DNA from: a virus
Taxonomy: Duplodnaviria > Heunggongvirae > Uroviricota > Caudoviricetes
Virus record (IMG/VR): IMGVR_UViG_2630968500_000011
Location: 1-7,989 of that record
Length of the DNA: 7,989 bases
Strand: one strand, 5' to 3'
Both the position numbers and the translations under genes were made by a program. The notes beneath the pieces were generated by a model, which saw only the letters and a list, made by a program, of their open reading frames with translations, was not told the DNA's origin and did no database searches. This document shows positions 1 through 7,989 of the stretch, one piece after another (positions within the stretch are counted from its first letter, which is position 1; each line of letters opens with the position of its first letter).

Positions 1-26
1 GGTGAAGTCGTTTGGTCATACGACAT
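1..26 (-). CDS. 5' end (8 codons, MSYDQTTS...) of a minus-strand gene that runs off the window start; product unknown
   Basis: ATG at 26..24 on the minus strand, preceded by AGGAG (complement of 32-36) with a 5-nt spacer. Frame is open to position 1. Too short to classify. Confidence 0.25.
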
Positions 27-166
27 AGCCGCTCCTGTAGATCAGAGCGGCGATAGCTGGACCAATGGGAAACATCAGATTATGGCTGGAGTTGTATTCT
101 CTTTACGCCGTGCTTTGGAACAGGCTGAAGTCTTTCCATCAGACCCTGAATGGAAATGGCCTTTTT

Positions 167-412
167 CTATTTGTCCAAATTCGGAGAGTACATTTCAGAA
201 AGTTGGTCAGAAAGTCGCACTCGAAGAGCATCAGCCAACTGTTTTCTGATTTTTTCAGGTAACTCGTCGGCATCGCAGAAACAACAACGCTCGATCATGT
301 TGAAAGCCGATTCGTAGAACTGTTTCTGCTGAGTGTCGCTGAGACAGGAAAAGAGCGACGTTACGATGATTTTATTAATTGCATTATCAAGTTCTTTTTC
401 ATCAAAAGTCAT
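167..412 (-). CDS. hypothetical small protein (81 aa), acidic, with a CCFC motif
   Basis: ORF 167..412 on minus strand. ATG at 412..410 is preceded by AAGGA about 7 nt upstream (complement of ~420-424). Composition looks like a soluble protein. Overlapping plus ORF 65..262 lacks an RBS. No family recognised. Confidence 0.55.
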   Translation of the reverse strand: MTFDEKELDNAINKIIVTSLFSCLSDTQQKQFYESAFNMIERCCFCDADELPEKIRKQLADALRVRLSDQLSEMYSPNLDK

Positions 413-665
413 TTGATTTTCCTTTTATGTATACGGACTTAAAAGGATACCACCGAGCCTGAAGTGGTGAAAAGACAGGCACATAACAGCTAAGTATTTT
501 CAACCAGAGAGAATCCTTAGCGTTGTGGTGAATGCGGCTCAGCGCACGCGGGTTAAGGTTGAGGCTGACAGTCGACCTTCTGTGGATACCCACCCGCCTG
601 GTGTGCAACCTTCGCCAGGCACCGGGAGGCACCCGGCACCACAACTTTATGCTGTGTGTAGTCTT

Positions 666-713
666 GGCGGTACCAGCTTGTACCCTTGCTTCCGGCTGGT
701 ACCGTCCTTTTTA
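666..713 (+). terminator. candidate intrinsic terminator / leader hairpin upstream of the operon
   Basis: 12-bp stem 666-677 / 695-706 (one G-U pair), 17-nt loop, followed by CTTTTTA (T-run 708-712). Loop is longer than in typical terminators. Confidence 0.4.
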
Positions 714-801
714 CAAAACAGAGAAGAGCATCACCGGACGACGGGCTCATAACCCAATCCATCCGGGCGGCAGTCACCGCAGGTGTTCTTCTCTGTTTTG
801 T
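713..801 (+). promoter_or_regulatory. leader structure: 15-bp perfect inverted repeat (713-727 ACAAAACAGAGAAGA / 787-801 TCTTCTCTGTTTTGT) enclosing 59 nt, ending 24 nt before the RBS of the first operon gene
   Basis: Arms are exact reverse complements, extendable to about 20 bp with wobble pairs (to 732 / 782). Enclosed segment is GC-rich with internal CCGGA/TCCGG pairing. Function as RNA stem or DNA operator pair is inferred. Confidence 0.45.
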
Positions 802-835
802 GGAGAAACTAATATCTTGTGCAGAGGAAAATAGA

Positions 836-1753
836 ATGAAATTACCAAAATTTCGTAACGCAATTGTGTACCGAGCAACATTACCTAGTATACAGGCTAT
901 TGAAGGGCATCTTCTCGAACTCCCTTATTCTGAAATCGGGGAAACAGAATTTTCACGGTCCTCTTTTGTAGAGAATCCTGTCACTGGTGAACTGGTAACT
1001 CCGATATCTGGTGGGTACGCAATGGTAATCCGTCATGATCAGAAAATAATTCCCCGACATGTCGTCATGAAAGAAGCTAATTCTCGAATCCAAACAATCG
1101 AAAATATGTCCGGGAATAAATTAAAGCGTGCCGAACGACTGGCCATTATTGATAACGTACGAGTAGATCTATGCAAACAGGCATTTGTTAAGTCTACGCT
1201 GATTCTTGCATTGTACAGCACTGATGAGAAATTATTGGTAATCAACACAACCAATAAAATAATAGCCGGTATGGTATGCGCAATGCTGATTAAGGTTGTC
1301 GGTTCAGTGAAAACAGAAACAATCAACATCAGTGATATCAAGAATGGACTGACTACACGCCTGAAGAACTACATCAATGGTGCAGCCAATGCATTTGAAG
1401 GATTCACTGTCGGGAATTATATTCAGCTATCACGCTACGCAGATCAAAAGGAAATTATTCGCTACTCAGCTGAGCATGAGTCAATTCAAAGCGAACTGGC
1501 CGATAGCCTTAGTAGTAGTTTCACTGCTGATAAAATGGAGTTATCCGGTTGCGGTGTGACCTTCATTCTTACCGAAAATTTCCATTTTTCGCGCATCAAT
1601 ACTCAATCTCAGACATTTAATGATGAAGATGATAAAGCATTCCAGTGGCGTCATCAGACTGGCACTGACCTTTTCCAATTCAGCAAGGTAGTTAATTTGA
1701 TGTGTGACCTTCTTTCTTACAAAGAAGATAAAAGCCAAAATCCAACAACTTAA
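836..1753 (+). CDS. RdgC-like recombination-associated protein (305 aa)
   Basis: ATG at 836 with GAGGAAA RBS at 825-831; the track ORF 686..1753 begins upstream without an RBS. N-terminus KFRNAIVYR and the segment AMVIRHDQKIIPRHVVMK resemble the RdgC family (FKNLMVYR and ICARKEEKILPSPVIKQ in E. coli RdgC, recalled from memory). Length matches the family (~303 aa). Confidence 0.75.
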   Translation: MKLPKFRNAIVYRATLPSIQAIEGHLLELPYSEIGETEFSRSSFVENPVTGELVTPISGGYAMVIRHDQKIIPRHVVMKEANSRIQTIENMSGNKLKRAERLAIIDNVRVDLCKQAFVKSTLILALYSTDEKLLVINTTNKIIAGMVCAMLIKVVGSVKTETINISDIKNGLTTRLKNYINGAANAFEGFTVGNYIQLSRYADQKEIIRYSAEHESIQSELADSLSSSFTADKMELSGCGVTFILTENFHFSRINTQSQTFNDEDDKAFQWRHQTGTDLFQFSKVVNLMCDLLSYKEDKSQNPTT

Positions 1754-1757
1754 AAAA

Positions 1758-1801
1758 ATTGCAGCAATCATCCCATGTCAAATGGGCTGGATTGCTGCAA
1801 T
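1758..1801. repeat. 11-bp perfect inverted repeat (ATTGCAGCAAT ... ATTGCTGCAAT) with nested 5-bp inner hairpin (CCCAT/ATGGG), intergenic
   Basis: Arms at 1758-1768 and 1791-1801. Preceded by an A7 run on the plus strand, so on the minus strand the hairpin is followed by a T7 run and looks like an intrinsic terminator facing antisense transcription. Could also be a protein-binding palindrome. Confidence 0.5.
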
Positions 1802-1842
1802 CAAAATTCAGCGCGGTGCAGCGCATATACGTGGAGAACAAA

Positions 1843-2379
1843 ATGTCATTTATTAAAACTTTTTCCGGGAAGCATTTTTATTATGACAGGATAAATAAAG
1901 ACAACATCGATATTAACGATATCGCGGTTTCCCTTTCAAATATCTGTCGCTTTGCCGGCCATCTTTCACACTTCTACAGCGTCGCCCAACATGCGGTGCT
2001 TTGCAGCCAGCTGGTACCGCAGGAATTTGCTTTTGAAGCGTTAATGCATGATGCAACAGAAGCGTATTGCCAGGACATTCCCTCACCACTGAAACGCCTT
2101 CTTCCTGACTATAAACGGATGGAAGAAAAAATAGACGCCGTAATCCGTGAGAAATACGGGTTACCCCCGGTTATGAGTACGCCCGTGAAATATGCCGATC
2201 TCATCATGCTGGCAACCGAACGCCGCGATCTCGGGCTTGATGATGGCTCTTTCTGGCCTGTACTGGAAGGTATCCCGGCAACAGAGATGTTCAAAGTTAT
2301 TCCACTGTCGCCAGGCCATGCCTATGGGATGTTTATGGAACGTTTTAACGAGTTATCGGAGTTACGCAAATGCGCATGA
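1843..2379 (+). CDS. yfdR: HD-domain 5'-deoxynucleotidase, YfdR/YfbR family (178 aa)
   Basis: ATG at 1843 with GGAGAA RBS at 1833-1838; the track start at 1759 would cover the palindrome and has no RBS. HD-superfamily motifs present: H in VAQHAVL, HD in LMHDATEAY, downstream Asp residues. Length and MSFIKTFSGKHFYYD N-terminus match my recollection of E. coli CPS-53 YfdR. Confidence 0.8.
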   Translation: MSFIKTFSGKHFYYDRINKDNIDINDIAVSLSNICRFAGHLSHFYSVAQHAVLCSQLVPQEFAFEALMHDATEAYCQDIPSPLKRLLPDYKRMEEKIDAVIREKYGLPPVMSTPVKYADLIMLATERRDLGLDDGSFWPVLEGIPATEMFKVIPLSPGHAYGMFMERFNELSELRKCA

Positions 2380-3017
2380 ATGTTTTCGAAATGGAAGGGT
2401 TTCTTCGCGGGAAATGTGTACCGCGAGATCTGAAAGTGAACGAAACAAACGCTGAATATCTGGTGCGTAAATTTGCTGAAGCGGAGGCCAAGATTTCGGC
2501 TCTGTCCGAAGACCACCAGAAAGCGATTGAGTCAATTAAGCAGGCTGATTCGGCTGTTAAGTTGGCACACGAGAAGTTTTCAGCGCTGGCGGCGGAGAAT
2601 GCGGGGCTGAAGTCATTTGGCGACAAGCTTAATGAGATGCATAACGACTTAAACGGCGAAGGCACGGGCATTCAGGGGCGCGCAGAGGTAGCGTGCCAGC
2701 AGGTGGCTCTTGAAGCGGCAATGGAAGAATTTGACGCTATCAAAACTCCAGCCACCGACGCCTTCCTGGATGAAGTGCGGGCGGATGCTCGCAACGAGGG
2801 GATTAACTATACCGCCAGCCGCCTCGCTGCCGCATTCAATCATGGTTTCGTTGATAAGCCGCTGGCTGAAGTCTGCGACGTGGTGCGCATGATTCTGGAC
2901 ACCAAAGAAGAACTGGCAAACTCCACGCTCCCATCGGCTGATGGGATTTCTGGCGAGTACGCAGAGAAGTTTCTCGCAGAGTTCGCCGCCCAACTTCGCC
3001 AGGAGCCAGCCCAATGA
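2370..3017 (+). CDS. hypothetical phage protein, Ala/Glu-rich and probably helical (215 aa)
   Basis: ATG at 2370 with GGAG at 2358-2361 (8-nt spacer); an alternative ATG at 2376 forms an ATGA overlap with the yfdR stop (2377-2379). Stop overlaps the next start (ATGA at 3014-3017). No family recognised. Confidence 0.65.
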   Translation: MRMNVFEMEGFLRGKCVPRDLKVNETNAEYLVRKFAEAEAKISALSEDHQKAIESIKQADSAVKLAHEKFSALAAENAGLKSFGDKLNEMHNDLNGEGTGIQGRAEVACQQVALEAAMEEFDAIKTPATDAFLDEVRADARNEGINYTASRLAAAFNHGFVDKPLAEVCDVVRMILDTKEELANSTLPSADGISGEYAEKFLAEFAAQLRQEPAQ

Positions 3018-3547
3018 GTATCGACAAACAGGCGCTGCGTGAAATCGCAGCGGCAGCAGTTGGCGCACATGAGCGCCTTAGTGTTATGCCGCCTGATGAC
3101 ATTTTCGATATCTCACTGGCAGAAGGAACTCAGCTTGATGCAGATATCACTGCCTTGAACGCGCTGAACTCCGCAGCAAACCCCACTACCGTGCTGGCGA
3201 TGCTGGATGAGTTGGAAGCCGCAAAAAAGCGCATAGCAGAACTGGAGGGGGGCGCATTCAATCCCGCAATTCTTGATGTGGTAGCAGAACGCCAGCGGCA
3301 ACAGTCGGTTGAAGGATGGACTCCTGAACATGACAACGCATATCAAAATAGCGAATTAGCAGATGCAGCGGCTTGTTACGCAATTCATGCGCACAACCAA
3401 GGTTTCTCCACTCCAGCACATTGGCCGTGGTCTCCTGACTGGTGGAAGCAATCAGGAGCACGCCGCGACTTAGTAAAAGCTGGCGCTCTTATTCTGGCAG
3501 AAATTGAACGTATTGACCGCGCCGCTGGCATTGGTAAGGGGGAGTGA
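3014..3547 (+). CDS. Ea22-like (ead) phage protein with a DUF550-like C-terminal region (177 aa)
   Basis: N-terminus MSIDKQALREIAAAA and the segment NPTTVLAMLDELEAAKKRIAELE resemble ead/Ea22-like proteins of lambdoid phages. C-terminal WTPEHDN...HWPWSPDWWKQSGARRDLVKAGALILAEIERIDRA resembles DUF550. Both recalled from memory. ATGA overlap with the upstream gene. Confidence 0.7.
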   Translation: MSIDKQALREIAAAAVGAHERLSVMPPDDIFDISLAEGTQLDADITALNALNSAANPTTVLAMLDELEAAKKRIAELEGGAFNPAILDVVAERQRQQSVEGWTPEHDNAYQNSELADAAACYAIHAHNQGFSTPAHWPWSPDWWKQSGARRDLVKAGALILAEIERIDRAAGIGKGE

Positions 3548-3978
3548 TGCTTCAACATCAAATGCAGCCAACATTTAACACCTGCATGGCTACCTGCGTT
3601 GCAATGGTTGCCGGTCAACCTGTCGATGAGGTAGTGGAACGCTGGCATCAGAAATTCCACGACAAAACAGACTGGCTCGACGACGCGCTGGATTATTACA
3701 AAATCCCGTATTTTTACGGAAGCCAGCGCAAGGCCGAATTGCTTTACGGGTTTATTTACTTCCTGACCGTTCCGTCACTGAACATCAAAGGCGGCCTGCA
3801 TCAGATTCTGATGTCGTTAACGGCAGAACGCGGCATAGAAGTATTTGACCCGGCAATGGGTCGGCCAGGATCAAAATATTACGTTTGGGGTGAAGCGCAG
3901 AACGATGATCAATTCGGCGTTATCTCCTGGTGCGTCGATTTATCGGTTCCGGTAGTGCAACAGAAAGGTGAGGACTAA
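3547..3978 (+). CDS. putative papain-fold cysteine peptidase, C39-like (143 aa)
   Basis: ATG at 3547 overlaps the upstream stop (TGATG at 3545-3549); the track start at 3544 is GTG. Motif order Q(7)...C(13) in QPTFNTCMATCVAMVAG, then His in GGLHQILMSL, then FDPAMG, matches the C39 peptidase Gln/Cys...His...Asp-Pro arrangement. Functional call is an inference. Confidence 0.5.
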   Translation: MLQHQMQPTFNTCMATCVAMVAGQPVDEVVERWHQKFHDKTDWLDDALDYYKIPYFYGSQRKAELLYGFIYFLTVPSLNIKGGLHQILMSLTAERGIEVFDPAMGRPGSKYYVWGEAQNDDQFGVISWCVDLSVPVVQQKGED

Positions 3979-3981
3979 CCC

Positions 3982-4827
3982 ATGAGCACTATTACCAAAG
4001 AACTGGCAAAGCTGTTCAGAAAAATTACGAATTCTGAAATTGATGCGGAGGGAAACGCTCATGTTGTTTTATCTCCTGCTGATAGCCTCCTGATTAATAA
4101 TGCGCGTATCGCGCTGGCATCGCTCGAAGCGGAGCCTGTGGCGTGGGCGCACAGATTAATCAACAAGCGTAACGGAGTCGTTCACCCTTGGGTTTACGGT
4201 AGCGCAGAGGCGTGTCCAAGCGAGGGGGATATCTTCAATATTGAGGTAATGCCGCTCTACACCGTCCCTCCAGCGCCGGTATCTGTGCCCGCTGCGATGG
4301 AAATGGATGATGACTTTGACAGCGCGTTTGAACACGGAAAAGCTGTCGGCTGGAACGCCTATCGCGCCGCCATGCTTCAGGCCGAACCTGTAAGTAATAG
4401 TGATGAGTTACCGCTGGACTATCTGCAAGGACACAAAGACGGCCTGGAGTGGGCTGCACAATTGGCAGAAGCCAATCATCCGCAAACAGGTGACTGGTTG
4501 TACGATGACCCAATCGATCTTGCCAGGGCGATTCGCAAAGGTCCGGATATGCCTACTGTTCAGGGTGGCAATTCTCCGGTAACTCCGGATGCTTGGATAA
4601 GCTGTAGTGAGCGAATGCCAGAAATGGGAGAGCGACAATGCTATGTGTTAGCAGCTGACTTTAAAAACAACTACCCACCAAACATCCCCAACACTCAGGT
4701 CGGCGTATATGGCGACTGGTTTAATGATGGCAATCCCACTTGGGATGACGGTGATGGCGAAGACCTGTATCTCAAAGAGGTAACCCACTGGATGCCTCTA
4801 CCAGAACCGCCGCAGGAGGTAAAGTGA
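3982..4827 (+). CDS. DUF551-domain phage protein (281 aa)
   Basis: ATG at 3982 with AGGTGAGGA RBS at 3966-3974. C-terminal WISCSERMPE...CYVLAA...VTHWMPLPEPP is the characteristic DUF551 signature. N-terminal two thirds have no recognised family. Confidence 0.75.
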   Translation: MSTITKELAKLFRKITNSEIDAEGNAHVVLSPADSLLINNARIALASLEAEPVAWAHRLINKRNGVVHPWVYGSAEACPSEGDIFNIEVMPLYTVPPAPVSVPAAMEMDDDFDSAFEHGKAVGWNAYRAAMLQAEPVSNSDELPLDYLQGHKDGLEWAAQLAEANHPQTGDWLYDDPIDLARAIRKGPDMPTVQGGNSPVTPDAWISCSERMPEMGERQCYVLAADFKNNYPPNIPNTQVGVYGDWFNDGNPTWDDGDGEDLYLKEVTHWMPLPEPPQEVK

Positions 4828-5399
4828 TGAACAACTTAATGATCGACCTTGAGACGATGGGGAAAAATAAGGATGCGCCGATCGTTTCTATTGGCGCAGT
4901 GTTCTTCACCCCAGAAACCGGAGACATCGGACAAGAATTCTATGCGGCTGTCAGCTTGGACAGTGCTATGGAGCAAGGGGCCACACCTGACGGCGACACC
5001 ATCCTGTGGTGGTTGAAACAAAGCCCTGAAGCACGAGCTGCAATCTGTATTGATGATACTTTGTCGATCAGCGATGCACTCTCTGAACTGAGCCATTTCA
5101 TTAATCGGCACGCAGACAATACGAAATATTTAAAAGTCTGGGGTAACGGAGCCAACTTCGACAACGTAATTTTACGCGGAGCTTATGAGCGAGCAGGACA
5201 AATCTGCCCATGGGCGTACTGGAATGATCACGATGCGCGCACGATCGTTACGCTTGGGCGTTCCATCGGATTCGACCCAAAAATGGACATGCCTTTCGAT
5301 GGCGAACGGCACAACGCCCTGGCTGATGCTCGTCATCAGGCAAAATATGTTTCCGCTATCTGGCAGAAATTAATTCCTGCCACCAGCACAGAATTATGA
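4827..5399 (+). CDS. DEDDh-family 3'-5' exonuclease, Rv2179c-like phage exonuclease (190 aa)
   Basis: ATG at 4827 overlaps the upstream stop (TGATG), with AGGAGG RBS at 4814-4819; track start 4824 is GTG. Exo motifs: MIDLETMG (D, E), WGNGANFD (D), HNALADARH (H...D). TILWWLKQ matches the phage Rv2179c-like subfamily. Confidence 0.8.
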   Translation: MNNLMIDLETMGKNKDAPIVSIGAVFFTPETGDIGQEFYAAVSLDSAMEQGATPDGDTILWWLKQSPEARAAICIDDTLSISDALSELSHFINRHADNTKYLKVWGNGANFDNVILRGAYERAGQICPWAYWNDHDARTIVTLGRSIGFDPKMDMPFDGERHNALADARHQAKYVSAIWQKLIPATSTEL

Positions 5400-5435
5400 T
5401 TTTCCCGGGTGCAGCCGGTTTTGATGGAGAAAATT

Positions 5436-5717
5436 ATGAACACCTTGTTTTTACTGATGGCTGAATTCAATACCCCTAACATTGAACTCTCAGCAGTTAG
5501 CCAAAAGTACTTTGGCATGAGTCCAGCCACGGCAGAAGCAAAAGCAAACGCTTGTAAGTTGCCCGTTCCAACATATCGCATCGGCACATCACAAAAAGCA
5601 AAACGTTGCATCAATATTCAGGATCTTGCGGAATACATAGACAAAAGACGAGAAGAAGGACGTATCGAGTGGGAACAGGTCAGAACAAGCAAACAGAAGG
5701 GCAAAGAACATCACTAA
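5436..5717 (+). CDS. PrtN-family (pyocin-activator-like) DNA-binding protein; probable excisionase/recombination directionality factor or regulator (93 aa)
   Basis: ATG at 5436 with GGAGA at 5426-5430 (5-nt spacer); alternative starts at ATG 5424 and GTG 5409. MNTLFLLMAEF...YFGMSPATAEAKANACKLPVPTYRIG...IQDLAEYIDKRR resembles the PrtN family. Terminal position before a terminator fits an Xis-like role (inference). Confidence 0.7.
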   Translation: MNTLFLLMAEFNTPNIELSAVSQKYFGMSPATAEAKANACKLPVPTYRIGTSQKAKRCINIQDLAEYIDKRREEGRIEWEQVRTSKQKGKEHH

Positions 5718-5720
5718 AGA

Positions 5721-5748
5721 AAAAACCCGCCTAAAGGCGGGTTTTCAA
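5721..5748. terminator. bidirectional rho-independent terminator shared by convergent genes
   Basis: AAAAAACCCGCC-TAAA-GGCGGGTTTTC: GC-rich stem (5725-5731 / 5736-5742), 4-nt loop, T-run on the plus strand and T6 on the minus strand. Lies 4 nt after the plus-strand stop (5715-5717) and 17 nt after the minus-strand stop (5765-5767). Confidence 0.8.
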
Positions 5749-5764
5749 AAAGCACCAGCTATGA

Positions 5765-5938
5765 TCATGCTGCTTTGCGACGACGAAGCTTACCCTGCTG
5801 CTCTTTACCAGAGACAGTAGCGTGAGTGAACGCATTAGGAGCAGCCTTCATCAGAACTTCAACAGCAGCACCCATACCTGCGAATGCTTTCATTGTGTCG
5901 AACTTAACCTGTGGCTTGGTTGCTTTTTGATCTTTCAT
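5765..5938 (-). CDS. small basic protein, 57 aa (MKDQKATKPQVKFDTMKAFAGMGAAVEVLMKAAPNAFTHATVSGKEQQGKLRRRKAA); function unknown
   Basis: Not in the ORF track. Hand translation of the minus strand: ATG at 5938..5936 preceded by GGGAG (complement of 5945-5949) with a 6-nt spacer, stop at 5767..5765, then the strong terminator. No family recognised. Confidence 0.6.
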   Translation of the reverse strand: MKDQKATKPQVKFDTMKAFAGMGAAVEVLMKAAPNAFTHATVSGKEQQGKLRRRKAA

Positions 5939-6008
5939 AGAAAACTCCCGAGACAGTAAAGGCGTCTCTAACCCTCTCTTTAAAGCTAGCTTGTTTCGCT
6001 AACTTATG

Positions 6009-6029
6009 CCAATCGATCATGTCGATTGG
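6009..6029. repeat. 21-bp palindrome CCAATCGA-tcatg-TCGATTGG, candidate operator
   Basis: Perfect 8-bp arms with a 5-nt spacer, about 70-90 bp upstream of the small-ORF start. No adjacent T-run, so not a terminator. Confidence 0.4.
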
Positions 6030-6104
6030 TGACATCGTTTCTTAGTAGTTTAAGCACAAAACGACTGCCATAGATGTACCTTTAAGGTAATCTGGACGGG
6101 TATC

Positions 6105-6117
6105 CTACAATTTGTAG
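6105..6117. repeat. 13-bp palindrome CTACAA-t-TTGTAG
   Basis: 6-bp perfect arms around a single central base, 18 bp downstream of the stop of the minus-strand 177-aa gene. Could be a binding site or a weak hairpin. Confidence 0.3.
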
Positions 6118-6134
6118 ACCCTTCTCGTCTATAC

Positions 6135-6668
6135 CTACTGAGCAAATTTAAGAAAGATATCCTGCAGCTCATCAATGACTGCAGACATCACATAACCGCA
6201 CTGTTCCATGCGGAAACCAAAAGACTCGTAATACTGCACCAGTTCTGGTACTGGCTCTACAATGTGGACAACTTTACATTCAACAGCTTTACAAAATATA
6301 AAAGCACTCATAAGAGTGAGTAAAACCATGCGCCCTTTCAATGGGTGAGATTCATCTTCTCTAGAAAACCTTTCGATCATATGGATACGAAAGATGTTTT
6401 CTTCAACCCCATAAACACAAATTGCTGCTCCTGATGGTATTCCCTGAACCCGACCTTGCTGAACAAGTTTTATGCAGAACTCATACTTTTCTCTGGAGTT
6501 GCCATAGGTACTTAACGCATAGTCCCATTCAAGCTCACCATAGCCACCACACAGAATCTTGTAATCATCATCACTGAGCGGACCAACAGCAAGAGGTAAG
6601 CCGACATGATCAATAATCAACTGGATATTGTTACGTACTGATTGACCTATCTCGTCCAGGGTAAGCAT
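6135..6668 (-). CDS. hypothetical protein (177 aa), AT-rich gene; tentative GNAT-related / acyltransferase-like fold
   Basis: ORF 6135..6671 minus; the second ATG (6668..6666) is better placed behind GAGAGG. The ELEWDY and IERFSRE segments and a C-terminal beta-alpha pattern (KVVHIVEPVPELVQYYESFGF) loosely resemble GNAT-fold or LuxI-type acyltransferases. Weak, memory-based. Confidence 0.6.
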   Translation of the reverse strand: MLTLDEIGQSVRNNIQLIIDHVGLPLAVGPLSDDDYKILCGGYGELEWDYALSTYGNSREKYEFCIKLVQQGRVQGIPSGAAICVYGVEENIFRIHMIERFSREDESHPLKGRMVLLTLMSAFIFCKAVECKVVHIVEPVPELVQYYESFGFRMEQCGYVMSAVIDELQDIFLKFAQ

Positions 6669-6700
6669 CATGGCCTCTCAAGCGGAACACTAAAAGTCGC

Positions 6701-6706
6701 ATTATA
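6701..6706 (-). promoter_or_regulatory. candidate -10 hexamer (TATAAT on minus strand) for the 177-aa gene
   Basis: Perfect TATAAT on the minus strand, 29 nt upstream of the start codon. No convincing -35 element. Confidence 0.25.
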
Positions 6707-7218
6707 TCTCATTCTTAAGCCGCGTATGGATTACACCTTGAAATGAAAACGCCGGGTTCCCAATAGGCTCCCACAGAGTGTATAACTACTTGTTTTTCAA
6801 CAACGGTACATCCTATCGAGCATTGGTGCAACGCTAAACCGACCACTCCAGTGAACGTCAGTTTTTTCAGGCATTGCGCTGGTTTGGTTGATTTTTTGCA
6901 TTTCAGAATTACCGTGCATTTTCAAATGTAGAGATTATTTTATCGATATATCATGGGGTTATGTTATTCAGCATCACTGTTCAGGAGGCTCAATAGCGGG
7001 GTACTATACCATAACAACAGGAAGCGCCTGTCTCATTGCAAAAGAAAATTGAGATCCTCTCAAGGCATGAAGCTCTCACGAAGTGATGGAAATAATCTTA
7101 TTAGCCGTTAACTTTGTTAAGGCCAATGATAAACAATCCAGGTTCGACGATAAATAAAAAATCACACATTAAACTCTGGTAATATATCTCCCTGCTAATA
7201 GCATTGATAGAGAAAAAA

Positions 7219-7245
7219 GAACCCAATAAATATTGGGTCCTTTTA
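7219..7245. terminator. candidate intrinsic terminator downstream of the truncated minus-strand gene (bidirectional-looking)
   Basis: Stem ACCCAA / TTGGGT (7221-7226 / 7233-7238) with 6-nt loop. Flanked by TCTTTTTTCT on the minus strand and CCTTTT on the plus strand. Lies 37 nt downstream of the stop at 7282-7284. Confidence 0.5.
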
Positions 7246-7281
7246 TATAATGCCTTCCATACTATCGAAGAACTTCACATA

Positions 7282-7989
7282 TTATTTCTCCGATTTAACC
7301 CCGAACAAATCATAAATTAATTTAGAAGTGTCTGTAAGTATTTTAATCTCTTCCTTTGAGGTTGGGTCAAACGACTTCGCGAAGCTAATTAATTGTGGTG
7401 CAGCATCTCGCATTTTGCTTAAAATATCAGGATCGAGCGTTCCTTCATTCACCAGATGTGACATCTTATCCAGATAGCCATCAAAATTCATTTCTCCCCC
7501 ATCAGCCAGACGCTTCATCTCTCCCAGGTACTTCTTCATATCACGTTGAGATAATTTTTCAAACTGAGCTTTCAGGTAGCTCTCATTATTTTCATTAATA
7601 TACACTGTTTCTGATAAATCTGCGTAGGCACTAGAATATGAAAGTGAAATTAACAGCGAAGCAAATAATTTTAAGCTGTTGTCATCATGTTCCTGGCAGG
7701 CATTAACAAACGTTAAAAAACCAGAACCTATTGCTTGAAAATGTATATTCGCTAAAGGTTCATTATCCTTAGATTCCTCATAAAATAGCTGAACCGTGGA
7801 GGGAAGGTCATTCTTAGTTTCTACATCAAAAGTACATTGTTCAATGGGCATTGCATCTTTATTATCCCCAAGATTACATATACTATTAATCGCGAAATGA
7901 AAAATAGCCCGGTCAACAACTGATGCAATAAAGTCACGATCGTTTAAATCCTCATCAGTGCAATCGTCAATATACTTATTGACCCACAT
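7282..7989 (-). CDS. C-terminal part (at least 235 aa) of a hypothetical protein on AT-rich DNA; gene continues beyond the window end
   Basis: Minus-strand frame open from the window edge to TAA at 7284..7282. Coding-like composition. The Met at the edge may be internal. No family recognised. Confidence 0.6.
   Translation of the reverse strand: MWVNKYIDDCTDEDLNDRDFIASVVDRAIFHFAINSICNLGDNKDAMPIEQCTFDVETKNDLPSTVQLFYEESKDNEPLANIHFQAIGSGFLTFVNACQEHDDNSLKLFASLLISLSYSSAYADLSETVYINENNESYLKAQFEKLSQRDMKKYLGEMKRLADGGEMNFDGYLDKMSHLVNEGTLDPDILSKMRDAAPQLISFAKSFDPTSKEEIKILTDTSKLIYDLFGVKSEK

Follow-up and report, generated by a model that had tools for sequence, protein, structure and literature searches.

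What does a basic protein of only 57 amino acids (aa) do in a temperate phage, and is the frame that encodes it a gene at all? The question is raised by a DNA stretch of 7,989 nucleotides (nt) from a virus of the Caudoviricetes (IMG/VR record IMGVR_UViG_2630968500_000011, positions 1 to 7,989), called the window below, in which a sequence-only reading had pointed out a short reading frame that is here named orf57. The window is identical in sequence to Escherichia coli strain G5 and represents an mEp460-like lambdoid prophage that is integrated in host dusA, beside yjbM (DUF2713) and zur. The frame is a genuine conserved prophage gene that codes for protein and experiences purifying selection; databases already list it as hypothetical, and the gene itself is not new to them. 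What is added here is its near-obligate pairing with an uncharacterised GNAT-fold enzyme, a degron-like C-terminus and the decay of partnerless copies, which define an apparently undescribed variant of acetyltransferase-based two-gene phage modules.

A conserved gene below the length cut-off

The gene and its expression signals are the following.

5765..5938, minus strand: orf57, an ATG-to-TGA frame of 57 codons for a 57-aa basic protein with an isoelectric point (pI) of 10.5, sequence MKDQKATKPQVKFDTMKAFAGMGAAVEVLMKAAPNAFTHATVSGKEQQGKLRRRKAA
5949-5945, minus strand: Shine-Dalgarno (SD) sequence GGGAG, 6 nt 5' of the ATG (5938-5936), unpaired in the predicted fold
5716..5746, minus strand: intrinsic terminator, GAAAACCCGCC-TTTA-GGCGGGTTTTT plus a T-run, with its stem at 5746-5721, about 18 nt past the orf57 stop

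The position of the gene, its ATG, a strong GGGAG ribosome binding site at good spacing and a strong terminator shortly past the stop had all been proposed in the sequence-only reading, which did not state the strand, and were borne out in the window and, in most cases, in the related loci compared. The start is always ATG with a purine-rich SD (GGAG, GAGG or GGGG) at the same position in 11/11 loci compared, and a GC-rich hairpin with a T-run follows the gene in 10 of 11, the Photorhabdus locus having no obvious one. The terminator RNA of the window folds with -19.3 kcal/mol (z = -3.84), a stability that was reached by none of 200 shuffled sequences. It is bidirectional and common to orf57 and the convergent gene of a PrtN-family excisionase, and the 21-nt 3' untranslated region of orf57 is identical across five taxa.

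Codon usage sets orf57 apart from its surroundings. With the weights of the Sharp and Li set, its codon adaptation index (CAI) is 0.56, compared to 0.22-0.37 for the other ORFs (open reading frames) of the window, and it exceeds all 1446 of 1446 windows of the same size taken from the other ten ORFs; enterobacterial orthologues display the same contrast to their neighbour gene. Judged by SD and codon adaptation, orf57 is efficiently translated. The frame is kept in homologues, with a pairwise ratio of non-synonymous to synonymous substitution rates (dN/dS) of 0.07-0.33, a check that had been suggested at the outset, and 51 of 60 third positions are variable in the alignment versus 26-27 at positions 1 and 2.

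The gene had been described as missing from the ORF track. This is correct for the track, from which orf57 is absent because of the 60-aa cut-off only, but the gene is not unannotated, as PGAP carries it as WP_000654815.1 with the label 'hypothetical protein'. The same RefSeq protein is gp24 of phage mEp460 and PHROG 2741, with function unknown in each, and the hidden Markov model (HMM) of PHROG 2741 matches orf57 with E = 8.1e-36, residues 1-57 lying on profile positions 1-57 of 57. The homology search that the sequence-only reading had called for thus yielded relatives, a protein family and an accession but no function: Pfam, NCBIfam and PADLOC searches gave no match, a PDB sequence search nothing credible (best E = 0.45), and the literature on the WP accession and on GNAT prophage toxin-antitoxin systems nothing specific. 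For the window itself the outcome is therefore modest, the gene being already hypothetical in databases and the earlier functional guess unsupported. In a wider sense, orf57 is a clean case of a protein of <60 aa that is hidden by length cut-offs, and gene callers miss the copy of at least one genome.

A constant neighbour with an acetyltransferase fold

The gene upstream of orf57 in the window is the following.

6135..6671, minus strand: orf178, acidic (pI 4.8) GNAT-fold protein; WP_000956557.1 = mEp460 gp23 = PHROG 4350

In the loci found from orf57, a gene of ~178 aa is located directly upstream on the same strand, one sampled lineage (E. coli with a Panacea cassette, described below) being excepted; the locus set includes six loci from a search with a closer orf57 alignment. 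The reverse search gave the same picture. When homologues of the 178-aa protein served as the starting point, every locus had an ORF of 56-59 aa downstream that could be aligned to orf57. Among these loci are those of Photorhabdus, Edwardsiella and Serratia, of a Shewanella protein with 43% identity, of an Edwardsiella protein with 46% identity and of a non-phage chromosomal copy. Two remote metagenomic members likewise follow the C-terminal half of an orf178 homologue (hhalign probabilities of 98% and 96%). The gap between the two genes is 196 nt in the window and 5-196 nt among the loci measured. Enterobacterales, Shewanella and metagenomic relatives all show orf57 in evolutionary linkage with the GNAT gene.

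Sequence searches of Pfam, NCBIfam, PADLOC and the PDB returned no match for orf178, and the PADLOC-DB v2 HMMs assigned 0 families to orf57 and 0 to orf178. The fold of the upstream protein was recognised from its AlphaFold2 model (pLDDT 94), which is that of a GNAT protein. A Foldseek search with this model gave 287 PDB matches below 1e-3; 50 of the 50 listed are acetyltransferases, and the structural neighbours include TacT3, TacT2, AtaT and another GNAT toxin (7byy). The two families carry complementary charges, the enzymes being acidic (pI 4.2-4.9, n = 43) and the small proteins basic (median pI 10.1, n = 66; 12 Lys or Arg among the 57 residues of orf57 itself), which argues for protein-protein docking. 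In two comparisons, conservation is higher for orf57 (91% and 79%) than for the GNAT gene (70% and 66%, respectively).

An intact orf57 homologue of Enterobacteriaceae bacterium 4M9 (locus L048, 3296-3469) lies ~260 nt past a GNAT homologue in a non-phage chromosomal context and was passed over by the source annotation.

Spread and anatomy of the small protein

Among 5.8 billion proteins searched, 48 were relatives of orf57, most of exactly 57 aa; they come from Escherichia, Salmonella, Enterobacter, Atlantibacter, Franconibacter, Cronobacter and Hafnia. Profile searches added members from Serratia, Photorhabdus, Edwardsiella, Plesiomonas, Brenneria and Shewanella as well as metagenomic sequences, down to ~25-30% identity and with all but one between 53 and 62 aa; the 26 family representatives at 50% identity span 53-79 aa. 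The AlphaFold2 model of orf57 (pLDDT 63) contains a single helix at residues 15-32, and the basic N- and C-terminal tails are probably disordered. Invariant throughout the family are M1, K2, G23, L29, P34, E46 and G49, with K2 replaced in E. coli copies without the GNAT gene.

The most telling feature of the protein is its end. AA (50) or VA (10) closes the sequence in 60 of 66 full-length members; the 27 diverse members all share this ending, which there follows Lys- or Arg-rich residues (RRRKAA, SRKVAA, SKKAVA, RKAKAA, KRKVA). Two classes of C-terminal recognition motifs of the protease ClpXP are xAA, as in ssrA (LAA), RplJ (EAA) and LldD (NAA), and a basic stretch followed by K and V/A-A, as in YbaQ (RAKKVA), PaaA (HARKVA) and MuA (RRKKAI) (PMC9775585, Table 2). 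The RRRKAA of the window fits the pattern of xAA, or of basic residues and then V/A-A. Since the C-termini match both classes, the basic tail can be read as a docking and degradation signal and not as a nucleic-acid-binding segment. The sequence-only reading had taken the Lys/Arg-rich C-terminus to suggest binding to nucleic acid or the ribosome, a proposal that found no support in Pfam, NCBIfam or the PDB.

A 67-aa 'ClpX C4-type zinc finger protein' is encoded in the early region of the same prophage (locus L001, 2835-3038), which may matter should orf57 be degraded by ClpXP.

Exchange of the partner gene in E. coli

Among 5426 complete E. coli genomes, 562 (~10%) carry orf57, including O157:H7 and O111:H8. 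The GNAT gene lies upstream in 358 genomes and a Panacea cassette in 205. In the latter, the GNAT gene and the spacer are replaced by the gene of a 190-aa Panacea (SocA)-domain antitoxin and an overlapping ORF of 139 aa, situated between attP/dusA' and orf57, for example in phage Lys8385Vzw (1473-2461) and likewise in four further loci. The 139-aa ORF has no Pfam or PADLOC match; together with the Panacea gene it likely forms a PanAT toxin-antitoxin pair whose toxin is unclassified. The junction of this cargo swap is located exactly at the SD of orf57, and the E. coli slot is thus used for cargo of the toxin-antitoxin type.

The orphaned copies of orf57 have changed. K2, invariant elsewhere in the family, is replaced by glutamate in 5/5 Panacea-context copies inspected, and all other changes in these copies are non-synonymous, with A20V and R54L in one haplotype and K50E and A57V in another. 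Frameshifted, truncated or read-through variants also occur among the database cluster representatives; at least 14 of them begin with 'ME' or stand in a Panacea context, versus ~3 in the 'MK' lineage. In contrast, five diverse E. coli with the GNAT context (G5, O157:H7, O111:H8, ST95 and a urinary isolate) have identical orf57 and identical orf178 proteins, and Salmonella copies of orf57 differ by one non-synonymous and three synonymous changes. The K2E replacement, the non-synonymous changes and the frameshifts of the orphaned copies, in small numbers and from assemblies of uneven quality, indicate that orf57 is constrained only while its GNAT partner is present. Frameshifts in homologous loci had been named in advance as an observation that would speak against the gene, and they cluster in the lineage that has lost this partner.

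A mobile cassette in several phage slots

The pair is found at different places in different phages. In the dusA phages of E. coli and Salmonella it lies at the attP-xis junction. Franconibacter, Serratia, Enterobacter, Edwardsiella and Hafnia have it between the Q antiterminator and the genes for holin and lysis, and in Photorhabdus it is within the tail/baseplate cluster of a myovirus. Its GC content is lower than that of the neighbouring phage genes. Occurrence in different accessory slots resembles the behaviour of a self-contained cassette of the moron type, for which terminator and variable slots are present and the promoter side is represented only by a TATAAT at 6701-6706 without a -35 element. 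Altogether, orf178 and orf57 probably constitute a mobile two-gene cassette with a possibly toxin-antitoxin-like function.

Two neighbours of the cassette deserve mention. Hafnia loci have, directly upstream of the cassette in the Q-to-holin slot, a gene for a protein of 319-352 aa with a RelA_SpoT domain (toxSAS/CapRel-like; ~4050-5109 in one locus). A Serratia prophage with the cassette carries a gene of the Acb2/Tad1-hairpin family (anti-CBASS/Thoeris sponge-like) at 6488-6769, just past the lysis genes.

Transcription and the structured spacer

Two features of the non-coding parts of the cassette are the following.

6701..6706, minus strand: perfect TATAAT, ~30 nt upstream of the orf178 start, without a good -35; candidate cassette promoter
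5983..6029, minus strand: two adjacent palindromes/hairpins in the orf178-orf57 spacer, CCAATCGA-N5-TCGATTGG (6029-6009) and AAGTTAGC-N7-GCTAGCTT (6005-5983)

The TATAAT was not reported by a consensus promoter scan, and the same type of scan revealed no internal promoter ahead of orf57 in the orf178-orf57 region, where only a conserved TAGGAT-like hexamer is present. Candidates for transcription of the cassette are the TATAAT, read-through from host dusA and a promoter in the spacer. A 5' fragment of dusA that lies upstream is oriented like orf178 and orf57, and the host dusA promoter therefore points into the cassette and would transcribe both genes, in lysogens only.

The spacer palindromes form perfect 8-bp stems, and their RNA fold (-19.3 kcal/mol, z = -4.05) is matched in stability by 0 of 200 shuffles. 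They are kept in six loci, mostly by sequence, among them Enterobacter, Pseudescherichia and Franconibacter. RNAalifold detected the conserved palindromes with little compensatory change, and an RNA and a DNA role are therefore indistinguishable; the palindromes could be an operator or an RNA element. A permissive Rfam search of positions 5600-7300 gave only sub-threshold terminator look-alikes. Sequestration of the SD by a GAGAC/GTCTC hairpin beside it was considered and rejected, as this hairpin is weak (-6.1 kcal/mol, z = +1.3) and the SD stays free. A 43-aa ORF in another frame that overlaps the orf57 start (5904-6035, minus strand) was likewise rejected, as probably not coding, because it is not conserved and the spacer carries indels in relatives. 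In rare database variants (P0009, P0014), this ORF is joined to orf57 through a frameshift.

The block formed by orf57 and its terminator is far more conserved than orf178 at silent and non-coding sites, silent divergence being 0.33-0.55 for orf57 and saturated for orf178. Either codon bias or a recombination history of its own could be the cause.

A proposed role and its alternatives

In the explanation that is favoured here, orf57 would be the second gene of a cassette in which an acidic GNAT-fold acetyltransferase is followed by a basic protein of 53-62 aa and then usually by a terminator, and which resides in the accessory ('moron') slots of temperate phages. The helix and the basic tails of the small protein would mediate its docking on the acidic enzyme, and a ClpXP-type C-terminal tag would keep it short-lived. 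Through such docking and the short life that a degron-like tag would confer, it might serve as an antitoxin-like labile neutraliser or regulator of the acetyltransferase, and the cassette may behave as a module of the toxin-antitoxin, abortive-infection or addiction type. A partner needed in excess would be in keeping with the high CAI and the strong SD, and the Panacea swap and the RelA_SpoT neighbour in Hafnia, which point to a slot that holds toxin-antitoxin cargo, are counted in its favour. As a whole, the picture of a short-lived binding partner and neutraliser of the GNAT enzyme in a toxin-antitoxin-like module is a tentative one, to which somewhat less than an even chance is given.

The GNAT/RHH type II systems (TacAT, AtaRT, KacAT, ItaRT) resemble the cassette in being prophage-borne, mobile two-gene modules with a GNAT-fold enzyme of ~175 aa and a small partner with a disordered basic C-terminal segment, which in the known systems plugs the toxin (7ak9, 6gtr). 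The differences from these pairs weigh against the favoured explanation, as do several other points. The antitoxin gene of the known pairs lies upstream and is adjacent or overlapping, whereas here the enzyme gene comes first and orf57 lies downstream, in enterics often past a structured spacer of 93-196 nt. The small protein has no DNA-binding domain and in particular no RHH/DUF1778 domain, judging from the Pfam and NCBIfam searches and the single helix of its model. Of the two proteins the small one is the better conserved, and the opposite is usual for toxin and antitoxin. In the known systems the enzyme acetylates aminoacyl-tRNA and arrests growth, and its partner neutralises it by binding; such tRNA-acetylating toxins have a basic surface for this purpose, but the present enzyme is acidic. 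Furthermore, neither orf57 nor orf178 has a PADLOC, Pfam or NCBIfam match, the suggested degron is a matter of motif resemblance only, and the evidence for decay comes from few genomes and from cluster representatives, in which assembly errors are possible.

The main rival explanation makes orf57 the substrate of its neighbour. The GNAT protein would acetylate the N-terminal Met-Lys or lysines in the histone-tail-like ends of orf57, and the mini-protein, modified or unmodified, would be the effector, directed at a conserved target in the host; if the unmodified form were harmful, the arrangement would be type VII-like, with the enzyme as neutraliser. Such a relation suits the pairing of an acidic enzyme with a basic small protein, the NatD-like structural neighbours of the GNAT protein and the invariant M1-K2 with K2E fixed in copies without the enzyme, and a component that touches a host target is expected to outconserve its enzyme, as orf57 does. 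Yet K2 is the sole invariant lysine, K50 varying between K, R, P and E, and it is weak evidence because Met-Lys starts are common in bacterial genes for translational reasons. Strong expression signals and an end that resembles a degradation tag would also be odd for a toxin, and the substrate role is considered unlikely, if worth keeping in mind.

Two other explanations fit less well. One of them builds on the sequence-only reading: orf57 would act on its own, without regard to the neighbouring gene, and use its Lys/Arg-rich C-terminus to bind nucleic acid or the ribosome. This would agree with the pI of 10.5 and the 12 Lys/Arg residues, with a codon adaptation typical of abundant proteins and with the open frame that persists in many genomes without the GNAT gene. 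Independence does not account, though, for the strictly kept position next to the GNAT gene in deeply diverged loci, and is at odds with the K2E, non-synonymous changes and frameshifts of partnerless copies; moreover, what is conserved in the tail is the terminal AA/VA and not a fixed basic pattern, and the Pfam, NCBIfam and PDB searches gave no similarity to known ribosomal, nucleoid or RNA-binding families. This explanation is improbable. Still less probable, and by now rather remote, is that the peptide is secondary and that the orf57-terminator block serves as a 3'-end, stabiliser, sRNA-like (small RNA-like) segment or recombination anchor for cargo exchange. The low silent divergence, the identical 3' untranslated region, the swap junction at the SD and the upstream palindromes would be in line with such an element. 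However, low silent divergence is expected for a gene of high CAI, Rfam offers no match beyond terminator look-alikes, dN/dS is well below 1, and protein conservation, length and motifs are kept down to ~25-30% identity, where the nucleotide sequences are unrelated.

The C-termini of the orf57 family resemble those of ClpXP substrates of the ssrA type (LAA, EAA, NAA) and of the MuA/YbaQ/PaaA type (RAKKVA, HARKVA) at the motif level only, and for orf57, FtsH or Lon would be equally conceivable. With phage morons and defence hotspots, such as the stx Q-to-lysis slot and PanAT, the cassette shares an apparently self-contained nature, usually its own terminator, a lower GC content, the location at Q-holin, attP and tail gene sites and, in the E. 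coli slot, interchangeability with the Panacea pair, whereas its promoter is only a candidate. Lambda CIII, a protease-inhibiting and protease-sensitive protein of 54 aa, is alike in size, in the single central helix between disordered regions, in being phage-encoded and in being plausibly protease-labile. In contrast to orf57, CIII has no dedicated enzyme partner and is encoded in the pL operon, and orf57 has no sequence similarity to it and no Pfam match.

A more far-reaching proposal is that of an undescribed family of phage-borne toxin-antitoxin, abortive-infection or addiction modules, in which a GNAT effector would be combined with a downstream-encoded, degron-tagged, histone-tail-like mini-protein of non-RHH type that is turned over by ClpXP. 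This must be regarded as doubtful. If true, the temperate-phage accessory repertoire would contain a widespread, unstudied two-gene system in E. coli, Salmonella, Enterobacter, Serratia, Hafnia, Edwardsiella, Photorhabdus and Shewanella, and an acetyltransferase module with a control logic unlike that of the known GNAT/RHH toxin-antitoxin pairs.

Position in the prophage

The elements that flank the cassette in the window are the following.

5409..5717, plus strand: PrtN-family excisionase (xis) gene (PF11112, E = 4e-23; PHROG 1300 excisionase), last gene of the prophage early-left operon
6797..6925 (ORF), minus strand: orphan 5' fragment of dusA, which marks the prophage attachment junction

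The sequence-only reading had located orf57 at the junction between the prophage and an AT-rich cassette. This placement was not accurate, as the prophage runs on through orf178 to the dusA' fragment (~6815-6919) and orf57 is inside the prophage, not at its boundary. The free phage mEp460 has the order int, attP, gp23 (178 aa), gp24 (57 aa) and xis. PGAP annotates window positions 6815-6919 as a partial 'tRNA-dihydrouridine synthase, missing C-terminus', and the fragment reads MKMHGNSEMQKINQTSAMPEKTDVHWSGRFSVAPMLD, then five further codons to the stop. Beyond it, yjbM (DUF2713; 7282-7989, minus strand) runs past the window end and is a frameshifted pseudogene in strain G5 according to PGAP.

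The ArcA-repressed sRNA-17 was described in mEp460-like prophages of E. coli K1 RS218, where its deletion raised the yfdP and yfdR transcripts (PMC7719688). It was considered as a possible orf57 transcript and rejected, since its sequence maps to window positions 685-705, ~5 kb away. This match (minus strand) falls into a GC-rich region at ~450-760 without a convincing ORF, and yfdR is located just downstream.
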